Positions 1 through 27,696 of a DNA stretch of 32,000 nt are shown piece after piece. The stretch is taken from contig WBXG01000005.1 in NCBI GenBank assembly GCA_008932965.1, positions 1-32,000 of the forward strand. The letters run 5' to 3'. The DNA comes from Verrucomicrobiota bacterium. GTDB lineage: Bacteria; Verrucomicrobiota; Verrucomicrobiia; Chthoniobacterales; UBA6821. A model generated the notes under the pieces. That model saw only the letters and a program-made list of their open reading frames with translations. It searched no databases and was not told the origin of the DNA. The position numbers and the translations under genes were made by a program. Position 1 is the stretch's first letter; the number at the start of each line of letters is the position of its first letter.

Positions 1-165
1 CTACCGATCTACTACGGAAGCCGGGAAGTCAGATGGATGCTGCGTTAGACTCCCATTTTGATTTGGGCAGTATGTACACATACAGCCCTGCATCAAAATA
101 CTCCTGCCTTACCCCATCAGCCTTCGCGGTCTCCTCGTCACGATCAGTATGAAATATGCGGGTTA
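1..165 (+). mobile_element. MITE-like repeat family, copy A (left TIR cut off by the window edge)
   Basis: Aligns along its length with copies at 6277-6457 and 7419-7599. Shared blocks are gggaagtcagatggatgctgcg and agccttcgcggtctcctcgtcacgatcagtatgaaa. The right end atgaaatatgcgggtta is the inverted-repeat terminus. Confidence 0.8.
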
Positions 166-261: not shown

Positions 262-1092
262 ATGAATTACAGCAGACTTTTTTCTTTTCGTGAAAGTGAG
301 GATGCATCACGCCCTTTGCTCGAGCACCTAGATGACTTGCGCCGAATGGTTATTAAAATAGCCATTACCCTTGTGGTAGCCATGGTGGGGAGTTTTTTCT
401 TTCGGAGTTTTCTAGCAGCGTTCATTCAAAAACCATTGATGATCGTTGATCCCACACGTGTCGGGAGTTTGCAATCACTCGGTGTTGCCGATTCTATGAC
501 GATTTCCCTAGAGCTCTCATTTTACGCTGGATTTATCCTCTCCTTTCCACTCTTACTTTATTTTGTTGGTGAGTTTCTTTTTCCGGCACTAAGTCGTGCC
601 GAAAAACGTTTAATCTTGCCTGTGACAGCGGGTAGTTTTTTTCTTTTTGTTCTTGGGGTGAGTTTTAGTTACTACGTGGTTCTGCCAGGAACCCTTGACT
701 TTTTTTTTCGTGATGCCAAGGCAATGCATTGGGTTCCAACCTGGACGGTCCGTGATTACTACTCTTTTACAACACAATTCCTCATCGCTTTTGGAGTTGC
801 TTTTGAAATGCCGATTGTCGTTTTGATTCTTGTAAAGTTAGGGTTTCTCAACTCAACAACATTACGCAAAACCCGTTCTATTGCTATTGTGACTATTTTT
901 ACAATTGCGGCTTTTATTACTCCATCACCTGATCTGATGACCTATTTATTAATGGGGGTTCCTATGGTTTTGCTCTATGAAGTGTGCATTCTTCTCGCAC
1001 GATGGGTTGAGGATCCAGCAGAGGAGCTGATTTTGGAACAACGAGTCGAAAGAAATCTCAGTGCCGAAATTGAAAAAAAGGGAGAGTTCTAA
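262..1092 (+). CDS. tatC: Sec-independent (Tat) protein translocase subunit TatC
   Basis: 276-aa polytopic membrane ORF. The N-terminal PLLEHLDDLRRMVIK motif and overall helix layout are typical of TatC. Its stop overlaps the next start (TAATG). Confidence 0.85.
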   Translation: MNYSRLFSFRESEDASRPLLEHLDDLRRMVIKIAITLVVAMVGSFFFRSFLAAFIQKPLMIVDPTRVGSLQSLGVADSMTISLELSFYAGFILSFPLLLYFVGEFLFPALSRAEKRLILPVTAGSFFLFVLGVSFSYYVVLPGTLDFFFRDAKAMHWVPTWTVRDYYSFTTQFLIAFGVAFEMPIVVLILVKLGFLNSTTLRKTRSIAIVTIFTIAAFITPSPDLMTYLLMGVPMVLLYEVCILLARWVEDPAEELILEQRVERNLSAEIEKKGEF

Positions 1093-2330
1093 TGGAAAAG
1101 AAAATCTCTCGACAGGCTATCTCTATTGTTTGGGGAGGAGCTATTTCATTTGTAGTTGCCATGGGATTTGCTAGGTTTGCATTCACCCCTCTTCTTCCGA
1201 TGATGCTTCACGATCATGTAATTGATCTGCAAGGGGGGACTTTCTTAGCGAGTATTCATTATATTGGATATCTTTTAGGGGCCAGTACATGTGTGCTCCT
1301 ACCATGGTTGCTCTCTCACTATAAAATTAGGATACCAAGTCATAGTGCAATCATTCGCTATAGTCTTTTGGTAACAGTGCTCTTGATTTTTGGCATGGCT
1401 CTTCCTTTTCCATGGCTCTGGCCTGCATGTCGATTTCTCACAGGAATCTCTACTGCTTTTGCATTTGTCTACACCTCGGGATGGTCTCTTGAACGACTTG
1501 CACAGCTCCAGGCTCTCTCATTAAGCGGACTCATTTATACTGGGCCTGGGATTGGCATTGTTCTCTCGGGGATGATTTCTATCCTGATGATTTTTTTTCA
1601 TTTCTCCTCTAGTGCTGCATGGTTGGGATTTTCAGTAATAGCAGCTTTCATGATCGCTGCTGTTTGGAAGACATTCCATGGGGATTTGATGAAGCATTCC
1701 TCCATTACCGAAACAAGAGATCTCCTGATTCCTGTGCCAGAAATGTGGACCTTAGAATCGATTTTCTTAATCATTGCCTATGGTCTTGCTGGATTTGGCT
1801 ACATTATTACCGCGACATTTTTACCCGTAATTGCCCATGAGGTGATTCCCAAATCGGCTTGGATTGATTATCTTTGGCCAATTTTTGGAGTGAGTGTTGT
1901 CATTGGAGCTCTCATCACAAAAAAAATTCCCCATGGAGCAGATCGTCGCTCTGTTTTATTTTTTATTTACATCATGCAATTAACAGGAGTTCTGATGCCT
2001 CTTGGGTTTCCTAGCCAAGGGGGCTTTCTCCTAGGGATTATTTTGGTGGGATTTCCTTTCAATATTATCTCACTTTTAGGAATGCAGGAAGCACGCCGGC
2101 TGCGACCGCAAGAATCAACAACACTCATGGGCTTGCTAAGTGCCATGTATGGATTAGGACAAATTTTAGGTCCATCGGTGGCTTCCTATTTTCTAAGTCA
2201 TAGCAAAAGTCATGCTCAGGCATTCTCCTTTTCCTTGATGACCGCAGCTGCAAGTCTCGGGGTCGGTGCATTTTTTTTCCTGCTCATGAGATGTTTATTT
2301 CCAATCAAAGCGATTGTATCTCACGATTAG
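1092..2330 (+). CDS. YbfB/YjiJ-type MFS transporter
   Basis: 412-aa ORF with about 12 hydrophobic segments. The N-terminal GFARFAFTPLLPMM motif is as I recall for the YbfB/YjiJ MFS family. A 1-nt overlap with tatC suggests translational coupling. Confidence 0.7.
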   Translation: MEKKISRQAISIVWGGAISFVVAMGFARFAFTPLLPMMLHDHVIDLQGGTFLASIHYIGYLLGASTCVLLPWLLSHYKIRIPSHSAIIRYSLLVTVLLIFGMALPFPWLWPACRFLTGISTAFAFVYTSGWSLERLAQLQALSLSGLIYTGPGIGIVLSGMISILMIFFHFSSSAAWLGFSVIAAFMIAAVWKTFHGDLMKHSSITETRDLLIPVPEMWTLESIFLIIAYGLAGFGYIITATFLPVIAHEVIPKSAWIDYLWPIFGVSVVIGALITKKIPHGADRRSVLFFIYIMQLTGVLMPLGFPSQGGFLLGIILVGFPFNIISLLGMQEARRLRPQESTTLMGLLSAMYGLGQILGPSVASYFLSHSKSHAQAFSFSLMTAAASLGVGAFFFLLMRCLFPIKAIVSHD

Positions 2331-2438
2331 CCTGAATATTTTAACGATGGCTGCCTCCTTTAGTAGCGGAGTATGAATGTGCGCTTGCAGTAGAGATGCG
2401 CCTGTGGCCACGGCATTGAAAGCATTTACATGCTCTAG

Positions 2439-2514: not shown

Positions 2515-2817
2515 AAAAGTCTGCTTTAAAATTTTATGAATGCTAATATTGGAGGGGCTACTTTGAACTATAGAAAGCCTCTGAGACCTATTGAGAGTTT
2601 CATGATGAAGCCGAAGTCAAACCGCTTTAGAAAATTCTAATACATGAACTCAAGCTAGCACAAAGAGACTCAAGTATCGCTTTTCCCCTCTTCAAAACTC
2701 AAAAATGTGAAAGCAGACTTTCTTGAGGAGCTAAACACCCTAATAGCAAAAGTAGAGAAGTTCAATGGGAAAAAGAAAAATTCAGAAGAATAAAGTATTC
2801 TCTCAAGTGTTATCGAT

Positions 2818-2849
2818 TAACCCGGGTATTTTAAACTGATCGTGACGAG
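2818..2849 (-). repeat. Terminal remnant (right-end TIR region) of the MITE-like family
   Basis: taacccgggtattttaaactgatcgtgacgag matches the reverse complement of the copy A right end (taacccgcatatttcatactgatcgtgacgag) at 28 of 32 positions. It lies 14 nt past the HIT gene stop. Confidence 0.6.
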
Positions 2850-4806: not shown

Positions 4807-6279
4807 ATGTCCTATTCTTCTCTTGCTCATTTTGTAAAAACTCTTGAAGAGGCTGGTGAATTGATCCGCATCACTCTTCCCGTAGCGACAGAGCTGCAAA
4901 TTACAGAGTTAGCGAATCGCGAAATGAAGAAGCCAGAAGGAGGAAAGGCGTTGCTTTTTGAAAAACCAACGATCCATGGAGTCATTTCCAAATTTCCTGT
5001 TTTAATCAACGCGATGGGTTCACGCAGGCGGATGGCAATGGCCTTAGGGCTTCATTCGGTGGAAGAACTATCCAGTCAGTTGGAATTCCTGATGAAGGCA
5101 AAACCGCCCAAAACATTCCGTGATGGTCTGACTCTCTTGCGGCAAGGAATCGATCTTGTTCATGCACGTCCCCGTTATGTGAAGCGCGGACCGTGTCAAG
5201 AGGTGGTCTATCGTTTAGATCAGGCGCAAAGTGATTTTTCGCTCAGCAGTCTCCCTATTCTTAAATGCTGGCCTCATGATGGAGGGCGCTTTGTAACCCT
5301 ACCAACAGTTTATACTAAAGACCCTGACACTGGGGATCGTAATATCGGCATGTACCGAATGCAGGTCTATGATGGCTCCACAACCGGAATGCATTGGCAG
5401 GTGCACAAGGTGGCGGCGCGCCATGGAAAGCGTTACTATGAGCGAGGAGAACCGATGCCAGTGGCTGTTGCCTTGGGTGGTGATCCTGTCTTTCCCTTTT
5501 CAGCAATGGCTCCACTTCCAGATGGTATTGATGAAATTCTCTTCGCAGGATTTGCACGCAAACGTTCTGTAGAGCTCGTGAAGTGTATAAGTGTGCCTCT
5601 GGAAGTACCAGCGGAGAGCGATATCGTGATCGAGGGTTTTGTCTATCCAGGGGAAACCCGCCCGGAAGGGCCATTTGGTGATCATACGGGATTTTATACG
5701 CCAGTCGATGACTATCCTGTTTTTCATGTCACCGCAATCACCCATCGTCGTGAAGCCATCTATCCTGCAACTATTGTGGGTGTACCTCCCATGGAAGATT
5801 TTTATATGGGAGAGGCAAGTGTGCGCATTTTTCTTCCTATCTTTAAAATGAATTTTCCAGAGATCGTCGACATGGCCCTGCCTGCAGAAGGAGTCTTTCA
5901 CAATCTTGTTTTTGTGAGTATTCGAAAGCAATACCCTTGGCAGGCATTCAAGGTAATGCATGGCCTCTGGGGAATGGGCCAGATGATGTTTTCGAAATAT
6001 ATCATTGTGGTGGATGAGGATTGTAATGTTCAAAACACTTCCGAAGTGATCTTCCGACTTTGTTCTAATACTGATCCACAGCGCGATAGCATTGTGACTA
6101 AAAATCCCAGTGATAGTCTCGATCATGCCCCAACCATTGCTAATCTGGGATCCCATATGGGATTTGATGCCACAAAAAAACTGCCTGGGGAAGGTTATAC
6201 CCGGGGCTGGCCAGACTTAGTTAAGATGGATCCAGCAGTTGAGGCATGGGCAGATCAGTTTGTTGGATATCCGGGTTAA
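4807..6279 (+). CDS. UbiD-family (prenylated-FMN dependent) aromatic decarboxylase, quinone biosynthesis type
   Basis: 490-aa ORF with the UbiD hallmark block GGRFVTLPTVYTKDPDTGDRNIGMYRMQVYDGSTTGMHWQVHK. The stop codon lies inside the terminal palindrome of repeat copy B. Confidence 0.85.
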   Translation: MSYSSLAHFVKTLEEAGELIRITLPVATELQITELANREMKKPEGGKALLFEKPTIHGVISKFPVLINAMGSRRRMAMALGLHSVEELSSQLEFLMKAKPPKTFRDGLTLLRQGIDLVHARPRYVKRGPCQEVVYRLDQAQSDFSLSSLPILKCWPHDGGRFVTLPTVYTKDPDTGDRNIGMYRMQVYDGSTTGMHWQVHKVAARHGKRYYERGEPMPVAVALGGDPVFPFSAMAPLPDGIDEILFAGFARKRSVELVKCISVPLEVPAESDIVIEGFVYPGETRPEGPFGDHTGFYTPVDDYPVFHVTAITHRREAIYPATIVGVPPMEDFYMGEASVRIFLPIFKMNFPEIVDMALPAEGVFHNLVFVSIRKQYPWQAFKVMHGLWGMGQMMFSKYIIVVDEDCNVQNTSEVIFRLCSNTDPQRDSIVTKNPSDSLDHAPTIANLGSHMGFDATKKLPGEGYTRGWPDLVKMDPAVEAWADQFVGYPG

Positions 6280-6457
6280 CCCGCATATTTGATACCGATT
6301 CTGCTGCGGCTTGCGAACCCCTAATGGATACTGCGTCAGTCTCGAATTGCTCCTCGGGCAGTATGAAACATACAGCCCTGCATCAAAATGCTCGCCTGCC
6401 TTACCCCATCAGCCTTCGCGGCCTCCTCGTCACGATCAGCATGAAACATCCGGGTTA
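6277..6457 (+). mobile_element. MITE-like repeat family, copy B (181 bp, full length)
   Basis: TIRs are taacccgcatatttgat at the left and atgaaacatccgggtta at the right, with TA at both ends. Internal blocks are shared with copies A, D and E. Confidence 0.85.
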
Positions 6458-6473
6458 ATGAGGCTTGTTTTTT

Positions 6474-7247
6474 TTAGTCGATAGTATCAAAAAAATATAC
6501 TTTTACTGCTAGTGCTATTTTTTTTATGAAACCAACACGATAGACCTGATGAAAAACATCATAACGATCACGCTTTATTTTTTCTAAAAGTGTTCGATAG
6601 ATAGCTTCCATCAGGCGTGCAGGGCGCATGAGATGGCGCTCGCATGGTGACATTTTTTTCCAAGCAATTTCTGCTTTTGCAAAAAAGGAGAGGGCTCTTT
6701 CTGCTTCGTAATCGAGTAGATGGATTGCTTGGGGTGAAGGGGTTGAATTGAGAATTTCTTTTTCTGTGACATGAAAGCGGGCGAAATCTTCAAGAGGTAA
6801 ATAGATTCTTCCTCGAGTAGCATCTTCGGCAACATCCCGCAGGATGTTGGTCAGCTGCAAGGCAAGTCCAAGATTCTCAGCATACTCGTTGACATTTTTT
6901 CCGCTGGCTCCAAAAAGTTGTGCGCTGACGAGTCCGACTGCAGAGGCAACGCGCCACGCATAGAGCCGAAGATCTTCAAATGTTTCATAACGATTAATTG
7001 AAAGATCCATCCGCATCCCTTGAATGATCTCCTCAAGTACTGTTCGATCTAGTTGATAACGTTCCCTCAGTTCCTCCAATCTCTCAAGAGCCGTCTGTAG
7101 AACGTTTTCTTTTTCACGCAATGAAAGTGATATGCTATCTACGCATTCATCAATGCTATGACACAAGTCATAGAAACGAAGTGCGCTCTTACGACGAGCT
7201 CGTGGTAAGAGGTAAAGAGCAATGGCTAAGTTTGATTGAAAATTCAT
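6474..7247 (-). CDS. Squalene/phytoene synthase family protein (HpnD/CrtB-like)
   Basis: 257-aa ORF. First Asp-rich motif is IDECVD. Second motif is NILRDVAEDATRGRIYLP, the characteristic DxxED...GRxYLP block. It is shorter at the N-terminus than the typical 280-310 aa. Confidence 0.8.
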   Translation of the reverse strand: MNFQSNLAIALYLLPRARRKSALRFYDLCHSIDECVDSISLSLREKENVLQTALERLEELRERYQLDRTVLEEIIQGMRMDLSINRYETFEDLRLYAWRVASAVGLVSAQLFGASGKNVNEYAENLGLALQLTNILRDVAEDATRGRIYLPLEDFARFHVTEKEILNSTPSPQAIHLLDYEAERALSFFAKAEIAWKKMSPCERHLMRPARLMEAIYRTLLEKIKRDRYDVFHQVYRVGFIKKIALAVKVYFFDTID

Positions 7248-7265
7248 ACCATGATGGTGATTGGT

Positions 7266-7420
7266 TCATTCGAATATTTCACACTAAATTTATTACAGCT
7301 TGTGAAAAGCTCTATGGCTACTGCGTTAATCTCGAATTGTGATTGGGGTGGTAGGGACTCCTACAGCCGTCATTAGCCTTCGTGGTCTCCTCGTCACGAT
7401 CAGTATGAAAATTCGGGTTA
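7266..7420 (+). mobile_element. MITE-like repeat family, copy C (shorter variant, about 155 bp)
   Basis: The left end cgaatatttcac and the right end cctcgtcacgatcagtatgaaaattcgggtta match the family. The left arm matches the fragment at 168-226. It shares its terminal TA with copy D. Confidence 0.75.
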
Positions 7421-7599
7421 GCCCGAATATTTCATCCCAATCTACTGCGGAAACCGGGAAGTCAGATGGATGCTGCGTTGATCTCGAAGTCTTCCTCGGG
7501 CAGTGTGTATACACACAGCCGTCGTCAGACTTCATCACTCGCCTTGCCCCATGAGCCTTCGCGGTCTCCTCGTCACGATCAGTATGAAAATTCGGGCTA
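7419..7599 (+). mobile_element. MITE-like repeat family, copy D (181 bp, full length)
   Basis: TIRs are tagcccgaatatttcat at the left and atgaaaattcgggcta at the right. There is a central perfect 14-nt palindrome gtgtgtatacacac (7503-7516). The reverse strand is open through the whole element. Confidence 0.88.
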
Positions 7600-7649
7600 G
7601 AGATTCTTTGACTCGTTACCCATTACTCGCTACCGGTTATGTGTCTCAT

Positions 7650-8249
7650 ATGACACTACCTAATCAAATTACTCTTGGTCGGATTTTACTGATTCCCATT
7701 TTTGTGCTCTTAGCTGTCTATTATGGACATAGTGTTGAAGCAGGGGAACCTGAAGAAAAATTACGTATTGCTGCTATTATTGTTTTTTTAGTCGCAGCGC
7801 TTAGCGATGGGGTTGATGGATGGTTAGCACGTCACTTTCGTCTTCAATCTCGCTTAGGGGCTATTCTGGATCCCATTGCTGATAAAGGATTGATGCTAAC
7901 TGCGATCATTACACTGAGTGTGAGTAATTGGGATCGGTCATTACCACTTTGGTTTCCAGTCTTAGTGATTACTCGCGATATCATTATTTTAACCGGATGT
8001 GCTCTGCTTCGTTTTCTCAATGGTTCTCTGGAAATTCGTCCCAGCTCTCTTGGAAAAATTTCTACTTTTTTTCAGATGTTTGCAATCGCAGTGGTATTGC
8101 TGCAGTGGCGTTATTACAGCATTATTGTTGGAATAGCTGGTATTGTTACCTTGCTCAGTGGTATCGGATATATAATCGATGGTGTTCGACTTTTAAAATT
8201 AGGGGGTCATGATAGGCCGACATCGGGAGATGTAATGGGTAATGGGTAA
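7650..8249 (+). CDS. pgsA: CDP-diacylglycerol--glycerol-3-phosphate 3-phosphatidyltransferase (CDP-alcohol phosphatidyltransferase family)
   Basis: Contains the motif DGVDGWLARHFRLQSRLGAILDPIADK. I chose the ATG at 7650 (MTLPNQITLGRILLIP), because the ORF-track start at 7503 lies inside repeat copy D. The last 5 codons and the stop are encoded by the heptamer array. Confidence 0.85.
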   Translation: MTLPNQITLGRILLIPIFVLLAVYYGHSVEAGEPEEKLRIAAIIVFLVAALSDGVDGWLARHFRLQSRLGAILDPIADKGLMLTAIITLSVSNWDRSLPLWFPVLVITRDIIILTGCALLRFLNGSLEIRPSSLGKISTFFQMFAIAVVLLQWRYYSIIVGIAGIVTLLSGIGYIIDGVRLLKLGGHDRPTSGDVMGNG

Positions 8250-8315
8250 TGGGTAATGGGTGGTGAGTGGTGAGTGGTGAGTGGTGAGTAAGGGGTAATG
8301 AGTGATGAGTGATGG
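8232..8315 (+). repeat. Heptanucleotide tandem array 1 (12 units, G-rich on the + strand)
   Basis: Counted by hand: gtaatgg x4, gtggtga x4, then gtaaggg, gtaatga, gtgatga, gtgatgg. Units are reverse complements of units in array 2. Confidence 0.95.
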
Positions 8316-8410
8316 GTTCTAAAGAGCACTATTCATTATCGAACGTAATGTTGAGAAGAGGATTACTCTCAGTACAAATTTCGAAATTTAATTTCATTTC
8401 GATTCTAAAA

Positions 8411-8641
8411 TTACTCCTTACCCATTACCCATCACCCATCACCCATCACCCATCACCCATCACCCATCACCCATCACCCATTACTCCTTACTCCTTACTC
8501 CTTACTCCTTACTCCTTACTCCTTACTCCTTACTCCTTACCCATTACCCATTACCCATTACCCATTACCCATTACCCATTACTCATTACTCATTACTCAT
8601 TACTCATTACTCATTACTCATTACTCATTACTCATTACTCA
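8411..8641 (+). repeat. Heptanucleotide tandem array 2 (33 units in homogeneous blocks, C-rich on the + strand)
   Basis: Counted by hand: ttactcc x1, ttaccca x2, tcaccca x7, ttactcc x8, ttaccca x6, ttactca x9. The array ends 10 nt before the der ATG. Confidence 0.95.
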
Positions 8642-8651
8642 TTCCTTTTTT

Positions 8652-10100
8652 ATGTATCGTGTAGCCATTGTTGGCCGACCTAACGTCGGCAAATCCTCTC
8701 TCTTTAATCGTCTTCTGGGTAGACGTCTTTCTATTGTTCATGACCAACCTGGGGTTACCCGTGACCGGCTTGCAGCAGTGTGTGAAAAAGGAGATATCCC
8801 TTTTGAAATTATCGATACAGGCGGGATTGGAGATGCACCTGACCCTGATTTTGCCGAGGCTACTCATGCCGCAGCCATGGCAGCAATTCAATCTGCAGAC
8901 CTACTTCTCTTTGTGGTTGATGGTCGTGCTGGGGTGACTCCGCTAGATCAAGAATTAGCTCAGCAACTACGTCGAACCGATCGCCCGCTTCTCCTCATTG
9001 TTAATAAAATCGATGAAAAAATGCACGAGTCATTTGTAAGTGATTTTTATGAGCTCGGTTTTGATCAGATTTTAAGCGTGAGTGCAGCCCATGGTGTGGG
9101 ACTGCATCATTTAATGGAGTCTATTGAAAAACATCTTGGGGTATGTGACGAAAAACAATCTCTAGTAAAAGAGGCGATTCCAAAACTTGCTATTGTAGGA
9201 CGCCCTAATGTTGGTAAATCTTCTTTGCTTAACACCATTCTTGGAGAGGAGCGAACTATTGTAAGTCCTATTTCTGGCACAACACGGGATGCTATTGATA
9301 TTCGATGTGACTTAAAAGGGGTTCCCTATTTACTGGTCGATACAGCAGGACTGAGGCATCGATCCAAGCCTGATACCTCAGTGGAGATTTTTAGTGCAAT
9401 GCGAACCCAGGAGGCCTTGCGCCGTGCTGATGTTGGTATTCTTGTTCTTGATGCTACCGTTGATATTACAGCTCAAGATAAACGTATTGCCGGAATACTT
9501 CAGGAATCTTTTAAACCTTGCCTAATTGTTGCCAACAAATGGGATCTTGTTCATAAAGAGGATGGTGGTCGTGCCTCCCAAGGTGAATACGCAGCGATGA
9601 TCCGAAGTGAATTATTTTTTCTCGATTATGCACCGATTATTTGTCTGTCCGCTAAAACCGGTCAGGAAGTAGGACGTCTACTCACCGCCCTTGAAGAAGT
9701 GAGAAAAGCTGCAGAGGTCCGTATCACTACAGGAGAGCTTAATCGATTTTTTAAGGCAGTATGGGAACATCAGCCACCTCCATCACGTGGAGGACGTCGT
9801 TTTAAGCTGCTGTATGCAACTCAGGTTGCTCCCGAAGTGCGCCCTCCATTTCATGCTCCAGAATTTTTGCTCTTCGTCAACGATGCAAAATTAATGACCG
9901 ACTCCTATCATAAGTACCTTCTTCATGCACTTCGCTCGGAGTGGCCTTTTTCAGGACTTCCCATTCGACTGCGTCTTCAGGGAAGGCTCTCTCGCGAAGA
10001 GCAAGATCGCAAGGCTGAAGGAAATGAGCAGCATATTCGAACAAAAATAGAACCGTATGTACTAAAGAGGAATGAAAAAGGAAACCGCTTAGGGGGGTAG
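8652..10100 (+). CDS. der: Ribosome-associated GTPase Der (EngA), two tandem GTPase domains plus a KH-like domain
   Basis: Two G1 motifs, GRPNVGKSSLFN and GRPNVGKSSLLN, each followed by DTGG/DTAG and NKxD motifs. Confidence 0.92.
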   Translation: MYRVAIVGRPNVGKSSLFNRLLGRRLSIVHDQPGVTRDRLAAVCEKGDIPFEIIDTGGIGDAPDPDFAEATHAAAMAAIQSADLLLFVVDGRAGVTPLDQELAQQLRRTDRPLLLIVNKIDEKMHESFVSDFYELGFDQILSVSAAHGVGLHHLMESIEKHLGVCDEKQSLVKEAIPKLAIVGRPNVGKSSLLNTILGEERTIVSPISGTTRDAIDIRCDLKGVPYLLVDTAGLRHRSKPDTSVEIFSAMRTQEALRRADVGILVLDATVDITAQDKRIAGILQESFKPCLIVANKWDLVHKEDGGRASQGEYAAMIRSELFFLDYAPIICLSAKTGQEVGRLLTALEEVRKAAEVRITTGELNRFFKAVWEHQPPPSRGGRRFKLLYATQVAPEVRPPFHAPEFLLFVNDAKLMTDSYHKYLLHALRSEWPFSGLPIRLRLQGRLSREEQDRKAEGNEQHIRTKIEPYVLKRNEKGNRLGG

Positions 10101-14098: not shown

Positions 14099-15880
14099 AT
14101 GCAAAAAAAATGGATTCTTCCTTCTTCGGCAGATTCTAAGCTAGTTGAGAGGCTTGCTAAGGAATTGAAACTACCGCTGGCTCTTACTGAGGTGCTGGTG
14201 CAACGAGGATATGCCTCTGTAGAAGTTGCTACCAATTTTCTCAATCCACGTTTGGCTCAGTTGCGACCTCCTGAGGAGATTCCAAATATTTCTGCGGCAG
14301 CAGATCGTTTGCAAGTGGCATTGCAAAAAAAAGAAAAGATTATTCTTTATGGGGATTATGATGTTGATGGCATTACTTCATTAACCTTGTTGTGTCGCTC
14401 TTTGAGAGCTTTGGGAGGTGACGTTGATTGTTTTATTCCAGAGCGTGCTTCAGAGGGATATGGGCTTAGCAAGGCAGGATTGAAACGGTGTTTTGAAATA
14501 TTCAAGCCAGGCCTTATCGTAGCTGTTGATTGTGGTACAAATTCTTTTGAGGAAGCTCAAATCATCCGGGAACAAAAAATCGATCTTATTGTTGTTGATC
14601 ACCATGAAATTCAAAATAGAGGTCAGGCTAAGATTTTTGACAAAACTTCAATAGTAGTAGAATCAATAGAAACATCATCATGTTTTGTCAAAAATCTTAG
14701 CTTGACCTCTATTTTAGTAAATCCTCAGCTAGGTTCTGACTATCACTATCTTTGTAGTGTTGGCTTGGTTTTCAAGCTCGTTCATGCACTGCTCAAGCGT
14801 TATCCCGCTCCCCCTTTTGACTTACGTGAATATCTTGATCTTGTGGCTTTAGGAACGGTTGCTGATATCGTCCCTCTTACGAAAGAAAATCGTATTTTTG
14901 TGACACATGGTCTCAAGCAGCTAGCTAAATCACGATGGCCGGGAGTAGTAGCTTTAATTAAGATTGCGGAGGTTCAACCCCCCTTTACTACCTATGACGT
15001 AGGTTATAAATTGGGACCTCGTTTAAATGCAGCTGGTCGTCTTTCCTCTGCTTTAGAGGCATTGGAGCTATTGCTCACTGATGATCCTAATACTGCAACT
15101 CGTCTTGCCCATGATTTGGATCTTCGTAACCGTGAACGTCAGCTCATTGAGCGTGCTGTGACCCAAGAGGCAGAGGAATTAGTGACCTCGATTTTTTCAA
15201 CATCCTCTCCTAAAAGCATCGTTTTGGGCCGCTCTCATTGGCATCACGGTGTTGTGGGGATTGTGGCTTCTCGTATTTCAAAACGCTGGCATCGTCCAAC
15301 TCTTATTATTGGTTTTGATGAACAGGGTCTTGGAAAAGGGAGTGGACGGAGTATTGAAGACTTCTCTCTAGTAATGGCTTTAGAAAAGTGCGCTGCTGTT
15401 TTAGAAACTTTTGGAGGGCATGCAATGGCAGCTGGACTCACATTAAAAAAGAAAAATTGTGACATCCTCGCTAGCTCTTTTGAGCAGGCTGCAGAGCTTC
15501 TTCTCACAGAAGAGGAGCTTACTCCTAAATTAAGATTCCATGCAGAAATAAAAACCTCAGAGCTTGATTCCAGTTGGTTGTTGGCACAAGAGAGGCTAGC
15601 CCCGTTTGGTGCAGGAAATGCACAACCGCTTTTTCTGGCTTATTCACTAATTCCGTTGCGAGAGCCACGTCTCTTAAAGGAAAAACATCTTCGTTTTGAA
15701 TTTGCTGGAAAAAAGAATGTTCCCCTCATTGGAATTTTCTTTAATGGCGCTCAAGAGCCCCTTCCAAAGCCACCGTGGGATATTGCTTTTACGCTTATGA
15801 GCAATACTTACCTTGGAAGAACAACGATGCAACTTCAGATTGTTGCGATTCGAACATCCTCGTTATCGCAGTTGATTTAA
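14099..15880 (+). CDS. recJ: Single-stranded-DNA-specific exonuclease RecJ, carrying an in-frame 29-codon palindromic insert
   Basis: DHH-family motifs are present (GDYDVDGITS, VDCGT, VVDHH, GGHAMAAG). The DHH-to-NP spacing is 38 aa here, versus about 13 in E. coli RecJ as I recall it. Confidence 0.92.
   Translation: MQKKWILPSSADSKLVERLAKELKLPLALTEVLVQRGYASVEVATNFLNPRLAQLRPPEEIPNISAAADRLQVALQKKEKIILYGDYDVDGITSLTLLCRSLRALGGDVDCFIPERASEGYGLSKAGLKRCFEIFKPGLIVAVDCGTNSFEEAQIIREQKIDLIVVDHHEIQNRGQAKIFDKTSIVVESIETSSCFVKNLSLTSILVNPQLGSDYHYLCSVGLVFKLVHALLKRYPAPPFDLREYLDLVALGTVADIVPLTKENRIFVTHGLKQLAKSRWPGVVALIKIAEVQPPFTTYDVGYKLGPRLNAAGRLSSALEALELLLTDDPNTATRLAHDLDLRNRERQLIERAVTQEAEELVTSIFSTSSPKSIVLGRSHWHHGVVGIVASRISKRWHRPTLIIGFDEQGLGKGSGRSIEDFSLVMALEKCAAVLETFGGHAMAAGLTLKKKNCDILASSFEQAAELLLTEEELTPKLRFHAEIKTSELDSSWLLAQERLAPFGAGNAQPLFLAYSLIPLREPRLLKEKHLRFEFAGKKNVPLIGIFFNGAQEPLPKPPWDIAFTLMSNTYLGRTTMQLQIVAIRTSSLSQLI
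14621..14707 (+). repeat. 87-bp palindromic element inside recJ (26-nt arms, 35-nt loop)
   Basis: The left arm ggtcaggctaagatttttgacaaaac (14621-14646) pairs with the right arm gttttgtcaaaaatcttagcttgacc (14682-14707), with 25 of 26 positions complementary. It starts on a codon boundary, and 87 nt equals 29 codons. Confidence 0.85.
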
Positions 15881-25341: not shown

Positions 25342-27696
25342 TTAATTTTCCATTTTTGAAACTAAAATCACAACAGAGCGTGATTCTACTAAGTAACTTT
25401 CCGCATTGATGGAAGGGGCTTCTTTCCAAGGGAGGATGTCCTGAGGCGATTCCTTAAAAGTATCAATACAACAACGCCAGGGTGTGTAGAAATTAGTGCA
25501 CAAGGGAATTTCAAATTCTAGAGATTTCCAAAAAGAATTGATCATGATATGAATCATCACTTTGTGATCATAATTACGCATTGTTGCAGCTAAGGCGTGT
25601 GAATCTGCACCTAGGTCAGGAGCATTGAGTTTGACACCATGCCACTCAATGGCTTTTTCGATAAGAAGTTCTCTCAATGTTTGAGCATAGGTGTCACAAA
25701 GATGACTGCGGTCTAAACGAAAATTAATGAGTTGCCGTGTGAATCGATGGATATCGGCATGTTTCTTGAGGAGGGACCAGTCAAAGGATCCGATATCACC
25801 TGCATGACAGTAGGCATTGTTATTTCCTTGTTGAGTACGTCTCACCTCATCACCAGCTAAAATCATTGGTGTTCCTACAGAGAAAAAAAGTATTGTTAAA
25901 AAATTTTTAATTTGTCGATTGCGTAATTTTTCAATTTCAGAATCCTCCGTAGGCCCCTCCATTCCGCAATTCCAGCTGCAATTGAAATTAGATCCATCGC
26001 GGTTGTTTTCTTGATTAGCTTCATTATGCTTTTCATTATAGCTCACCAGATCATTGAGAGTAAAACCATCGTGACAGGTAATAAAATTGACGCTCTGTTC
26101 AGGGTTTCTCTCTTCATTTTCATAAATATCTGGGCTCCCTGTCATGCGGTAAGCAAGAGATCTAATAGTATTATTATCTCCTTTAATAAAAGAGCGAACA
26201 TCATCACGAAAATGTCCATTCCACTCATTCCAGGAATCTCCAGGAAAATGTCCCACTTGGTACAGTCCGGCAGCATCCCATGCCTCTGCAAATAACTTAA
26301 TGTTTGCTAGTACAGGATCGGATTCGATATCCCAGATAGTAGGAGGATGAGCCATGGGAGTTCCTGATTCATCACGAGAGAGAATAGAGGCTAGATCAAA
26401 ACGAAAACCATCGATATGCATCTCATCAACCCAATAACGAAGAGAGTCAAGAATGAGACGACGCACAATAGATTCATTAGCGTTGAAGGTATTTCCACAA
26501 CCACTAAAGTCAGCATAGGTTGCTTTATCTTTTCCTAAAATATAGTAGGTTTCATTGCCAAGTCCACGGAAAGAGAGTGTAGGGCCATGAAGGCCTCCTT
26601 CCGTAGTGTGATTAAAAACGACATCGAGAATTACTTCAATGTTTGCACGATGCAGTGCTTTGACCATGGAACGAAATTCATCTAATACGGCTAATGGCTC
26701 TTTTTTTGAGGAATACTGAGGATGCGGTGCAAAAAAAGCATAGGGTTGATAGCCCCATATATTAGAAAGGCCATCGGGTGCGTCTTCCGGGTCAAAGGCA
26801 AAGATCGGGAGTAATTCCACAGCAGTGATTCCAAGCTCTTTTAAATAGGGGATTTTTTCAATAACTCCAGCATAGGTACCTCTTTTTTCAGGAGAGAGAC
26901 CAGAATTAGGATTGCTAGTGAATGTCCCAATATTCATTTCGTAAATAACTGTTTTACATAAAGGATGGCGCAAAGGCAAATCACCCTCCCAATCGTAAGA
27001 TTTAGAATGAACAACTACATTTTTTATCGCAGTAACACAATTATCCCCTGGTGCTGCAGCAGCTTTACGGGAACGAGAAGAAGGGAGAGCTATACATTTT
27101 CCATAAGGATCAAGTAATACTTTTTCAGAGTCAAAGCGAAGTCCCTCCTTGCTATTAAAGGGACCATACATACGCCAAGCATAAATTTGGCCCTCTTTCA
27201 GACCAGGTACAAAAACATGCCAATAATGATAAGATCTATTTTGCTGGGTTGTAAGTGGAATCACTTTCGAGGGCTTGGTATCCTCAATATGATCAAAAAG
27301 CAGCAACTCCGCCTGCTTTGCATGTTTTGAAAAGATGCTAAAGTTAACGCCATGCTTAAATACAGTGGCTCCAAGTGGAAAACTTCTCCCCGTCTCCTTG
27401 CCAAATGCTGCTCTTGAAACTAATCCAGATATTTCATGCTCATCACCTACAACAATTGGGGAGCCAGATGGATGCTGCGATGAGCTCAAAGTAGTGCTCT
27501 GGCAGTGTATGCTTGCACCTAGGTCGTCAGACTTCATCACATATCCTGACCCATCAGGCTTCGCAGCCTCCTCGTCACGATCAGTATGAAATATCTCAGT
27601 GAGCTGGGAGGACTCCATGTTTACCTCCTTGGGTTTATTCAAGGACTGAGCGCTAGGAGCTGCTCCAGGGATATTCTTTGTGGTAAGATCTGTCAT
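25342..27696 (-). CDS. glgX: Glycogen debranching enzyme GlgX with a repeat-derived N-terminal extension
   Basis: GH13 debranching core beginning FPLGATVFKHGVNFSIFSKHAKQAELLLFD at about residue 105, with GFRFDLAS and EAWD motifs. About 100 extra N-terminal residues include a translated copy of the MITE-like repeat. An alternative start is the ATG at 27537, inside the repeat. Confidence 0.88.
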   Translation of the reverse strand: MTDLTTKNIPGAAPSAQSLNKPKEVNMESSQLTEIFHTDRDEEAAKPDGSGYVMKSDDLGASIHCQSTTLSSSQHPSGSPIVVGDEHEISGLVSRAAFGKETGRSFPLGATVFKHGVNFSIFSKHAKQAELLLFDHIEDTKPSKVIPLTTQQNRSYHYWHVFVPGLKEGQIYAWRMYGPFNSKEGLRFDSEKVLLDPYGKCIALPSSRSRKAAAAPGDNCVTAIKNVVVHSKSYDWEGDLPLRHPLCKTVIYEMNIGTFTSNPNSGLSPEKRGTYAGVIEKIPYLKELGITAVELLPIFAFDPEDAPDGLSNIWGYQPYAFFAPHPQYSSKKEPLAVLDEFRSMVKALHRANIEVILDVVFNHTTEGGLHGPTLSFRGLGNETYYILGKDKATYADFSGCGNTFNANESIVRRLILDSLRYWVDEMHIDGFRFDLASILSRDESGTPMAHPPTIWDIESDPVLANIKLFAEAWDAAGLYQVGHFPGDSWNEWNGHFRDDVRSFIKGDNNTIRSLAYRMTGSPDIYENEERNPEQSVNFITCHDGFTLNDLVSYNEKHNEANQENNRDGSNFNCSWNCGMEGPTEDSEIEKLRNRQIKNFLTILFFSVGTPMILAGDEVRRTQQGNNNAYCHAGDIGSFDWSLLKKHADIHRFTRQLINFRLDRSHLCDTYAQTLRELLIEKAIEWHGVKLNAPDLGADSHALAATMRNYDHKVMIHIMINSFWKSLEFEIPLCTNFYTPWRCCIDTFKESPQDILPWKEAPSINAESYLVESRSVVILVSKMEN
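27421..27601 (+). mobile_element. MITE-like repeat family, copy E (181 bp, diverged), embedded antisense in the glgX reading frame
   Basis: The left end taatccagatatttcat, the internal block ccagatggatgctgcg, and ggcttcgcagcctcctcgtcacgatcagtatgaaatat align with copies A, B and D at the same spacing. Confidence 0.8.

Follow-up and report, generated by a model that had tools for sequence, protein, structure and literature searches.

Does a small hairpin that recurs at the same place in every copy of a dispersed repeat, with stem sequences that change from copy to copy but still pair, tell of selection on the structure itself? The question is raised by the first 32,000 nucleotides (forward strand, hereafter the window) of contig WBXG01000005.1 from a Verrucomicrobiota bacterium (assembly GCA_008932965.1), which hold five copies (A to E) of a repeat of ~180 nt and for which the original prediction was that double changes at stem positions 3, 4 and 5 betray such selection, be it on an RNA or on a single-stranded DNA hairpin. 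Our findings lend good support to a view that sees the repeat as a non-coding, non-autonomous transposon (MITE, for miniature inverted-repeat transposable element) with IS1380-type ends, and likewise to one that sees the hairpin (a 5-bp stem with a 3-4-nt loop) as the turning point of one long imperfect palindrome between the termini. It is this foldback as a whole which keeps complementarity beyond ancestry; the apex stem alone is weak evidence, being mostly invariant and having changed in one or two events.

All five hairpins can be read from the sequence with the positions, stems and loops first described, and all five occupy the same site within homologous repeats of ~180 nt:

70 to 83 (+), apex hairpin of copy A: gtatg-taca-catac; -11.3 kcal/mol, z -4.1
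6361 to 6373 (+), apex hairpin of copy B: gtatg-aaa-catac; -10.4 kcal/mol, z -4.1
7351 to 7364 (+), apex hairpin of copy C: gtagg-gact-cctac; -11.0 kcal/mol, z -2.7
7503 to 7516 (+), apex hairpin of copy D: gtgtg-tata-cacac; -11.5 kcal/mol, z -3.3
27505 to 27518 (+), apex remnant of copy E: gtgta-tgct-tgcac; z +0.32 and +0.45

Folded alone as 24-nt segments with RNA and DNA parameters and compared with shuffles, the apices of copies A to D reach -10.4 to -11.5 kcal/mol as RNA (z -2.7 to -4.1) and -5.2 to -6.4 kcal/mol with DNA parameters; beyond an A.A mismatch, their 5-bp stem extends into a lower stem of 3-4 bp (GGGC/GCCC). Copy D, the site that the original prediction had named, carries a perfect 14-nt palindrome, loop included, and copy C a rare compensated G-C pair at stem position 4. 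The hairpin of copy E is no better than chance: as RNA it folds at -4.4 kcal/mol (z +0.32), with 118 of 200 shuffles equally stable, and with DNA parameters no hairpin is predicted for the 24-nt segment.

The five copies belong to a family that litters the genomes of some freshwater Verrucomicrobia and is an ordinary kind of element. Scanning one genome per species with a two-block pattern gave 87 stretches, nearly all from two metagenome-assembled genomes (MAGs), Chthoniobacterales Tobar2m-G38 and 'Spartobacteria' Kiruna_bin-02438. In 599 kb of loci, nhmmer hits without overlap numbered 231, among them 145 distinct near-full copies, and 737 kb yielded 210 more; these counts give no density, as the loci were picked because they hold a copy. 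Another 52 copies came from a metagenome scan with the terminal 18-mer. The collected set comprises 197 near-full copies from the two MAGs and the metagenomes. Apex counts below refer to 185 copies with the canonical centre (three genomes plus metagenomes), and alignment-based results to 135 copies, an alignment that leaves out 10 grossly rearranged or alternative-centre copies which the anchor-based apex counts include or list as skipped.

Copy D folds end to end (-70.1 kcal/mol, z -5.4), the median minimum free energy (MFE) of the 135 copies is -67.9 kcal/mol, and their consensus is a 68-pair hairpin that has the small stem at its tip; in the 63-69-pair foldback, the small hairpin is the apex. 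RNAalifold on the same copies yielded a structure of just 3 trivial pairs, as chimeras and gaps introduced by MAFFT disrupt the consensus, and was replaced by a consensus of the per-copy MFE folds. The complementary (minus) strand is the more stable one in 124/135 copies (median -83.0 vs -67.9 kcal/mol) and in all 10 subfamily consensuses, which fold at -67 to -100 kcal/mol. Private transitions viewed from the plus strand give A.C and G.U at 102:52, or 27 vs 14 per pair (p 0.06). Strand asymmetry was considered as a sign of one functional strand and dropped, the per-pair split being weak and G.U counts similar on both strands.

The foldback is a mosaic of widely diverged left and right modules, with three outer-arm types (a, b, c) and at least five inner-helix types in the MAGs, plus two more in metagenome copies. 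A suspicion that stems flanking the small hairpin covary proved right, as at least seven versions of the inner helix exist and left/right pairing is kept in each:

CATTTTGAT/ATCAAAATG
CATTGTGAC/GTCAAAATG
GAAGTCT/AGACTTC
ATTGTGAT/ATCACAAT
ATTGC/GCAAT
TTTGAGC/GCTCAAA
TTTTGGC/GCCAAAA

For the outer arms, the module on the left is cognate with that on the right in 137 of 168 copies (89.6 expected), and for the inner helix this holds in 135 of 160 (49.8 expected); in most of the chimeras the two halves are swapped at the apex.

Covariation over the 135 copies was compared with shuffles and with slid controls, nulls that are not phylogeny-aware:

Cells paired: 78.7%; shuffles 74.8% (0/500 reach the observed value); slid controls 30-41%
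Cells changed on both sides: 392; shuffles 215 (0/500); slid controls 136-193
Pairs with a double change: 38; shuffles 36.6 (165/500); slid controls 33-42
Further pair types: 109; shuffles 110.8 (384/500); slid controls 91-109

At the level of ten subfamily consensuses, which removes copy-number inflation, 12 pairs show double changes where shuffles give 8.3+/-1.5 (4/500) and slid controls 1-8; the covariation score reaches 0.136, compared with 0.090 for shuffles (0/500), and one of the five apex pairs varies. Maintained pairing beyond shared ancestry, as had been claimed for the small hairpin, is seen across the whole foldback but is thin at the apex.

At the apex itself, 110 of the 185 copies have the identical stem GTATG/CATAC. 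The only compensated variants present in multiple copies are GTGTG/CACAC (16 copies) and GTAGG/CCTAC (2 copies, or 4 together with two GCAGG/CCTAC derivatives). Five Watson-Crick pairs are formed in 128/185 copies and full pairing, with G.T allowed, in 133. At least one pair is broken in 52 (28%), the sort of copy which the original prediction would have counted against selection if numerous, and 12 further copies have a different centre altogether. Stem positions 1 and 2 are essentially invariant in the 135-copy alignment, where the others read:

Stem position 3: A-U 109, G-C 18, G-U 2, other 6
Stem position 4: U-A 116, G-C 4, U-G 3, other 12
Stem position 5: G-C 123, G-U 2, A-U 1, other 8

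The A-T double change at position 5 occurs in copy E alone. So the pattern of double changes at positions 3 to 5 does exist, but it comes down to about two independent lineage-level events plus the singleton E. Conservation of the apex exceeds 90%, like that of the terminal repeats. Between the consensuses of the GTATG/CATAC and GTGTG/CACAC subfamilies there are 11 differences (positions 1 and 178 adjoin the target duplication), and in simulations with 10-12 random substitutions a compensated pair arose anywhere in the fold with P 0.085-0.12 and in the apex stem with P 0.007-0.011. Other sequence stands in place of the apex module in at least 12 copies (e.g. L029 6969-7135, L078 2412-2580, L121 ~1477, L125 ~10322, L107 ~7862 and L118 ~1424), one replacement being a G+C-rich hairpin (GGGCAACACCAGTGCTCGGGAGAGCCTGGGGT), sometimes with a ~50-nt insert (..GCCCTTTCAGGGCTGCCTAAAGGCAGTCTCC..), and another TTCGCTTAAAATCATGTCCTGCCTAC, as if the tip of the foldback had undergone nested insertion or an exchange of modules.

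Where a constraint would act can be gauged from the decay of inserted copies. Private changes were called against the five nearest relatives of each copy (455 events, 92 copies), a nearest-neighbour method that replaced a singleton-based mutation count with too few events, and per column they amount to:

Paired columns (all): 2.52
Unpaired columns: 2.73
Terminal repeats: 2.75
Apex stem: 1.5
Apex loop: 4.0

Fewer changes than expected are seen in the apex stem only (15 events vs 25.7, P 0.016), and 4 of these 15 are module swaps, not point changes. With elements masked, copies are not biased in their orientation to tandem neighbouring genes (31 co-oriented vs 24, p 0.42); a bias of 31 vs 9 (p 0.0007) was rejected as an artefact of open reading frames (ORFs) called through the element's minus-strand open frame. 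Since private changes are alike in paired and unpaired columns and orientation bias is missing, inserted copies behave as neutrally decaying DNA. It follows that complementarity is a property of the propagating, multiplied lineages rather than of a host RNA, kept up either because source copies have to snap back or by templated mutation. Selection as an RNA, one of the two options that had been claimed, is thus not borne out; nor was a terminator-like or promoter-like site found around copies B to D (6200-7700), the apex being followed by AGCC(G/C) where an intrinsic terminator would have a T run, and Rfam returned only four tRNAs for the window at gathering score and nothing meaningful for 7260-7610 at E<=10.

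What kind of element multiplies these foldbacks is suggested by its ends. Copies are 150-228 nt long (mode 177-178) and have terminal inverted repeats of ~18-22 nt, CCCGSATATTTCATAC ... GTATGAAATATSCGGG, which are mutual reverse complements and abut YTAR on the outside. In the fold, ACCCGGATATTTCATAC.GATC pairs with GATC.GTATGAAATATCCGGGT, and helix 1 comprises 22 pairs with 86.7% of cells paired. Both 4-nt YTAR flanks are identical in 61/105 copies (TTAA 41, CTAG 12, CTAA 6, TTAG 2). Because, in isolated copies, the variable flank positions agree more often than expected (38/54 and 41/54, against 27.5 and 28.7), the flanks point to a target duplication of 4 bp, the palindromic TTAA and CTAG being preferred. 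No protein family match was found within the copies, and the minus-strand open frame encodes no transposase. In the window, the family is represented by:

1 to 162 (+), copy A: left end cut by the window edge; TTAA follows at 163-166
6280 to 6454 (+), copy B: TTAA flanks at 6276-6279 and 6455-6458
7268 to 7417 (+), copy C: degenerate left end (ttcgaatatttcac); left half of type c/i3
7422 to 7596 (+), copy D: flanks TTAG 7418-7421 and CTAG 7597-7600; nhmmer 181.7 bits
27424 to 27599 (+), copy E: the most diverged copy
2813 to 2849 (-), solo right end (CTCGTCACGATCAGTTTAAAATACCCGGGTTAA): directly downstream of a HIT-family gene

Copies A (outer arms a, inner helix i1; nhmmer 2-165, 162 bits) and D (a/i2, a full-length hairpin) have cognate arms. 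Copy B is a chimera of a b/i4 left half and an i1/a right half, which is why its whole-element foldback is weak (z -1.35) although the apex is kept; copy C, chimeric as well, has lost ~29 nt of its right inner arm. Copies C and D stand head to tail with one YTAR in common (TTAG 7418-7421), as neighbouring copies often do.

Two full-length elements on metagenome contigs, candidate autonomous partners, have matching ends. L116 1813-3888 (2,076 bp) reads CTAG|CCCGGATATTTCATAC ... GTATGAAATATGCGGG|CTAG and so has a perfect CTAG direct repeat, while L148 374-2007 (1,634 bp) is bounded by ends of that type and lies between TTAG and CTAA. The latter's 467-aa ORF (540-1943, minus strand) is an IS1380-family transposase (NF033539, 378.2 bits, cut-off 180; PF13701, DDE_Tnp_1_4, 496.8 bits, E 4.5e-149), and L116 encodes a homolog 40% identical to it. 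The left inverted repeat (IRL) agrees with the MITE terminus in 16/16 bases and the right one (IRR) in 14/16, and similarity to the two elements is confined to the terminal ~18-20 nt. Judged by these termini, the MITE is presumably moved in trans by an IS1380-type DDE transposase that binds them. In the MAG loci, transposase genes were sought between widely spaced ends, and host genes only were seen. The closest prokaryotic relative of piggyBac is IS1380. In a piggyBac phylogeny IS1380 transposases served as the prokaryotic outgroup, and piggyBac elements are characterised by a TTAA duplication and by termini beginning with CCC (PMC10813416). The window elements, with their TTAA/CTAG-CCC...GGG signature, suit this relation well.

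How, then, might complementarity be kept in elements which decay neutrally once inserted? We propose, and would give it an even chance, that the constraint acts on source copies, those able to snap back being the ones mobilised, and not on a host function of each copy. An element snapping back, as single-stranded DNA at a replication fork or as an extruded cruciform, would bring its two ends together and could then be mobilised and copied by a trans-acting IS1380-type transposase, with the apex nucleating the fold. Left and right modules would accordingly stay complementary in those lineages that multiplied, the apex would be as conserved as the termini, and GTGTG/CACAC and GTAGG/CCTAC would be surviving compensated lineages. 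A more specific version, in which efficient mobilisation of short non-autonomous IS1380/piggyBac derivatives depends on the foldback, the ends being pre-aligned for the trans-acting transposase and the apex serving as nucleation point or host-factor site, we regard as rather improbable; if it were true, covariation would be the footprint of a structural requirement not described for this DDE superfamily.

Several points weigh against this proposal. The snap-back step is one that we infer, and we know of no experiment or mechanism that requires an internal hairpin for transposition of the IS1380/piggyBac DDE type. In about nine copies, a lineage of GTAGG/CATAC and derivatives, the G.A mismatch at position 4 is uncompensated; this lineage looks like an intermediate toward GTAGG/CCTAC. 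The two conservative covariation measures over the 135 copies, double-change pairs and pair types, do not rise above shuffles (165/500 and 384/500). Of all copies, 15-18% are chimeras whose halves are not complementary, and one kind (b,i4|i2,a) is found six times, so either a perfect foldback is not strictly needed or the chimeras are dead or assembly products. L116 and L148 come from an organism other than the MITE hosts, as their contigs have ~58% G+C and the hosts 42%. Finally, templated mutation without selection could give the same pattern.

In that last scenario, one arm of a quasi-palindrome is rewritten from the other by intramolecular template switching at its centre during replication, so that a mutation is erased or compensated in a single event. 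Such mutation is documented at quasi-palindromes in E. coli (PMC7202029), and it has been suggested that compensatory changes in stems can arise in this way (PMC8794818). About eight copies read GGGCTGT-ACACAT-ACAGCCC, with two arms that are exact reverse complements and the customary A.A mismatch 'repaired'; in some (L013_4342, L063_3872, L046_3457, L134_9466) one half is replaced by the reverse complement of a right half, 25/160 are chimeras switching halves at the apex, and the perfect 14-nt palindrome of copy D, loop included, is also what template switching would leave. A shortage of uncompensated private changes in the apex stem is likewise expected from self-correction. Yet the same mismatches and internal loops (the A.A by the stem, the pyrimidine-rich loop of i2) persist across subfamilies where homogenisation should erase them, most loops (TACA, GACT, TACT, AAA) are not self-complementary, loop inversions are absent outside grossly rearranged copies, and a conserved left/right asymmetry marks the outer arms of each of the three types. 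To our minds, templated mutation is a serious but on balance unlikely account. Shared ancestry and chance, by which the hairpin would be a relic of a palindromic origin and the double changes coincidences inflated by copy number, could draw on the identical stem in 110/185 copies, on the one apex pair of five that varies at consensus level, on the P of 0.085-0.12 for one compensated pair anywhere given 10-12 substitutions, and on the 135-copy figures (38 vs 36.6 double-change pairs, 109 vs 110.8 pair types) together with the 28% of broken stems. What makes it quite improbable is that two separate compensated apex variants are multi-copy, at an apex-specific P of 0.007-0.011 per event, that at least seven divergent inner helices are complementary (cognate in 135/160 copies vs 49.8 expected), and that consensus-level double changes number 12, where shuffles give 8.3 (4/500) and slid controls 1-8.

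A function at the host level, with the co-transcribed hairpin as stabiliser, processing site or terminator as for ERIC, Correia and bcr1, would suit a fold that is very stable on either strand (consensuses at -67 to -100 kcal/mol) and copies that are intergenic and beside genes, and it has precedent in MITEs that form long RNA stem-loops and in bcr1 with its compensatory changes (PMC3184786). We nonetheless find it highly doubtful, given the even orientation (31 vs 24), paired columns that are no poorer in private mutations, similar G.U counts on the two strands, the lack of a terminator- or promoter-like site in copies B to D, and that of an Rfam match for 7260-7610 even at E<=10. Recognition of the hairpin by a single-strand (HUH/Y1) transposase, as for IS200/IS605 derivatives or REP with RAYT, was the other option originally claimed and has next to no chance: only the conserved small hairpin speaks for it, and it is contradicted by terminal inverted repeats of ~20 nt and a 4-bp duplication, which IS200/IS605-type elements and REPs lack, by a hairpin that is central instead of subterminal, and by matching full-length elements that encode an IS1380-family DDE transposase.

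Compared with known systems, we see no sign of a new kind of system; what is particular to the window family is its host lineage, IS1380/piggyBac-type ends with TTAA/CTAG duplication, and a pronounced modular mosaic. With IS1380 and piggyBac it has in common CCC...GGG termini and a duplicated 4-bp target, TTAA or something near it (CTAG, CTAA, TTAG), with 15-16 of 16 terminal bases identical to those of L116 and L148; unlike these, it lacks a transposase, is 10 times shorter and resembles them only over the terminal ~18-20 nt, while they in turn have no internal foldback. Nezha of Anabaena/Nostoc, whose terminal inverted repeats and direct repeats are common with ISNpu3, and Chunjie of Geobacter are alike in size (~130-235 bp), in terminal inverted repeats that match an insertion sequence, in flanking direct repeats, in very stable predicted stem-loops, in filled and empty sites between related genomes and in a partner insertion sequence, here a candidate one, residing in another organism (PMC3184786). 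The family described here differs from them in its Verrucomicrobiota (Chthoniobacterales) host, its relation to IS1380 with a 4-bp YTAR duplication, and its strong mosaic of three outer-arm and at least five inner-helix types with half-swaps at the apex. In the Bacillus cereus group, bcr1 is also a dispersed mobile repeat (~155 bp) with short flanking direct repeats, in which compensatory base-pair changes keep a double-stranded structure whose stability is lost in some copies (PMC3184786). Its direct repeats are of 5 bp, however, and it is known to be transcribed. Correia and ERIC elements are often co-transcribed with neighbouring genes, and RNA-level effects have been documented for them in work on RNase III and RNase E. 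They too are short, with terminal inverted repeats and a long RNA hairpin from end to end (PMC3184786), but have TA duplications, whereas the present copies show neither orientation bias nor a sign of function at the transcript level. REP/BIME sequences with RAYT and IS200/IS605-derived palindromes are similar in that small conserved hairpins sit in dispersed repeats, and BIMEs are mosaic as well; unlike the MITE, they have no terminal inverted repeats, no target duplication and a Y1 HUH transposase.

The family adds an abundant and well-defined MITE to the poorly studied, largely uncultured freshwater Chthoniobacterales/Spartobacteria, and its TTAA/CTAG-CCC...GGG signature together with the transposase-bearing matches ties it to IS1380. 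As a modular foldback with compensated helices, it offers a test case for whether complementarity in the interior of a MITE is selected or a by-product of templated mutation. Elements of this kind also interrupt assemblies, lengthen ORF calls and can turn into coding sequence. ORF calls of downstream genes do run through whole elements, whose minus strand is an open reading frame (RIFHTDRDEEAAK...), and are inflated in length (loci L038 3559-5918, L045 2046-6060, L138 298-2513). A reading as a coding repeat, considered for the recurrence of RIFHTDRDEEAAK... at the starts of long ORFs, was rejected in general, most copies being intergenic and in both orientations.

Copy E is a case apart, lying in frame within the 5' part of a glgX/isoamylase-like ORF (25342-27696, minus strand). 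Homology of this ORF to solved bacterial GlgX/TreX proteins begins at residue 103 and the CBM48 domain at residue 107, while its in-frame start codons are residues 1, 19, 27, 53, 54 and 70 only. With no in-frame start after residue 70, expression of the gene would mean that at least 22 and possibly all 58 codons of copy E are translated into an N-terminal extension. For this reason copy E is the least suitable copy for drawing conclusions on a constraint on the hairpin.

The window (42% G+C) is syntenic with Tobar2m-G38 contig L060 at 78-85% nucleotide identity, and copy occupancy differs between them at orthologous intergenic sites, so elements have moved or turned over since the two genomes split. 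At window 2331-2383 there is a possible internally deleted remnant (TTAG, then cctgaatattttaacgat ... gtatgaatgtgcg), absent from the nhmmer hits, and at the same intergenic site L060 (3929-4298) has two full copies. A small ORF of ~28 codons ((M)KADFLEELNTLIAKVEKFNGKKKNSEE) is uninterrupted at window ~2706-2792; its counterpart in L060 (~3630-3380, minus strand) is split by a diverged MITE copy (L060 3428-3603).

Two further repeats were seen in the window. Directly downstream of the gene that follows copy D, 7-nt tandem repeats occupy 8232-8317 and 8383-8681, (GTAATGG)n and then (ACTCCTT / ACCCATT / ACTCATT)n, the heptamer blocks being mutual reverse complements with 86-nt arms that are 76-78% complementary. 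These heptamers had raised a suspicion of a cyanobacterial origin with Nostoc-type repeats (SDR, Nezha), which was rejected, the MITE family being found in Chthoniobacterales/Spartobacteria MAGs and the window being syntenic with one of these. The other repeat, at 14613-14646 and 14682-14715, is a 34-nt inverted repeat, 97% complementary across a 35-nt spacer (AAAATAGAGGTCAGGCTAAGATTTTTGACAAAAC) and unrelated to the MITE family.

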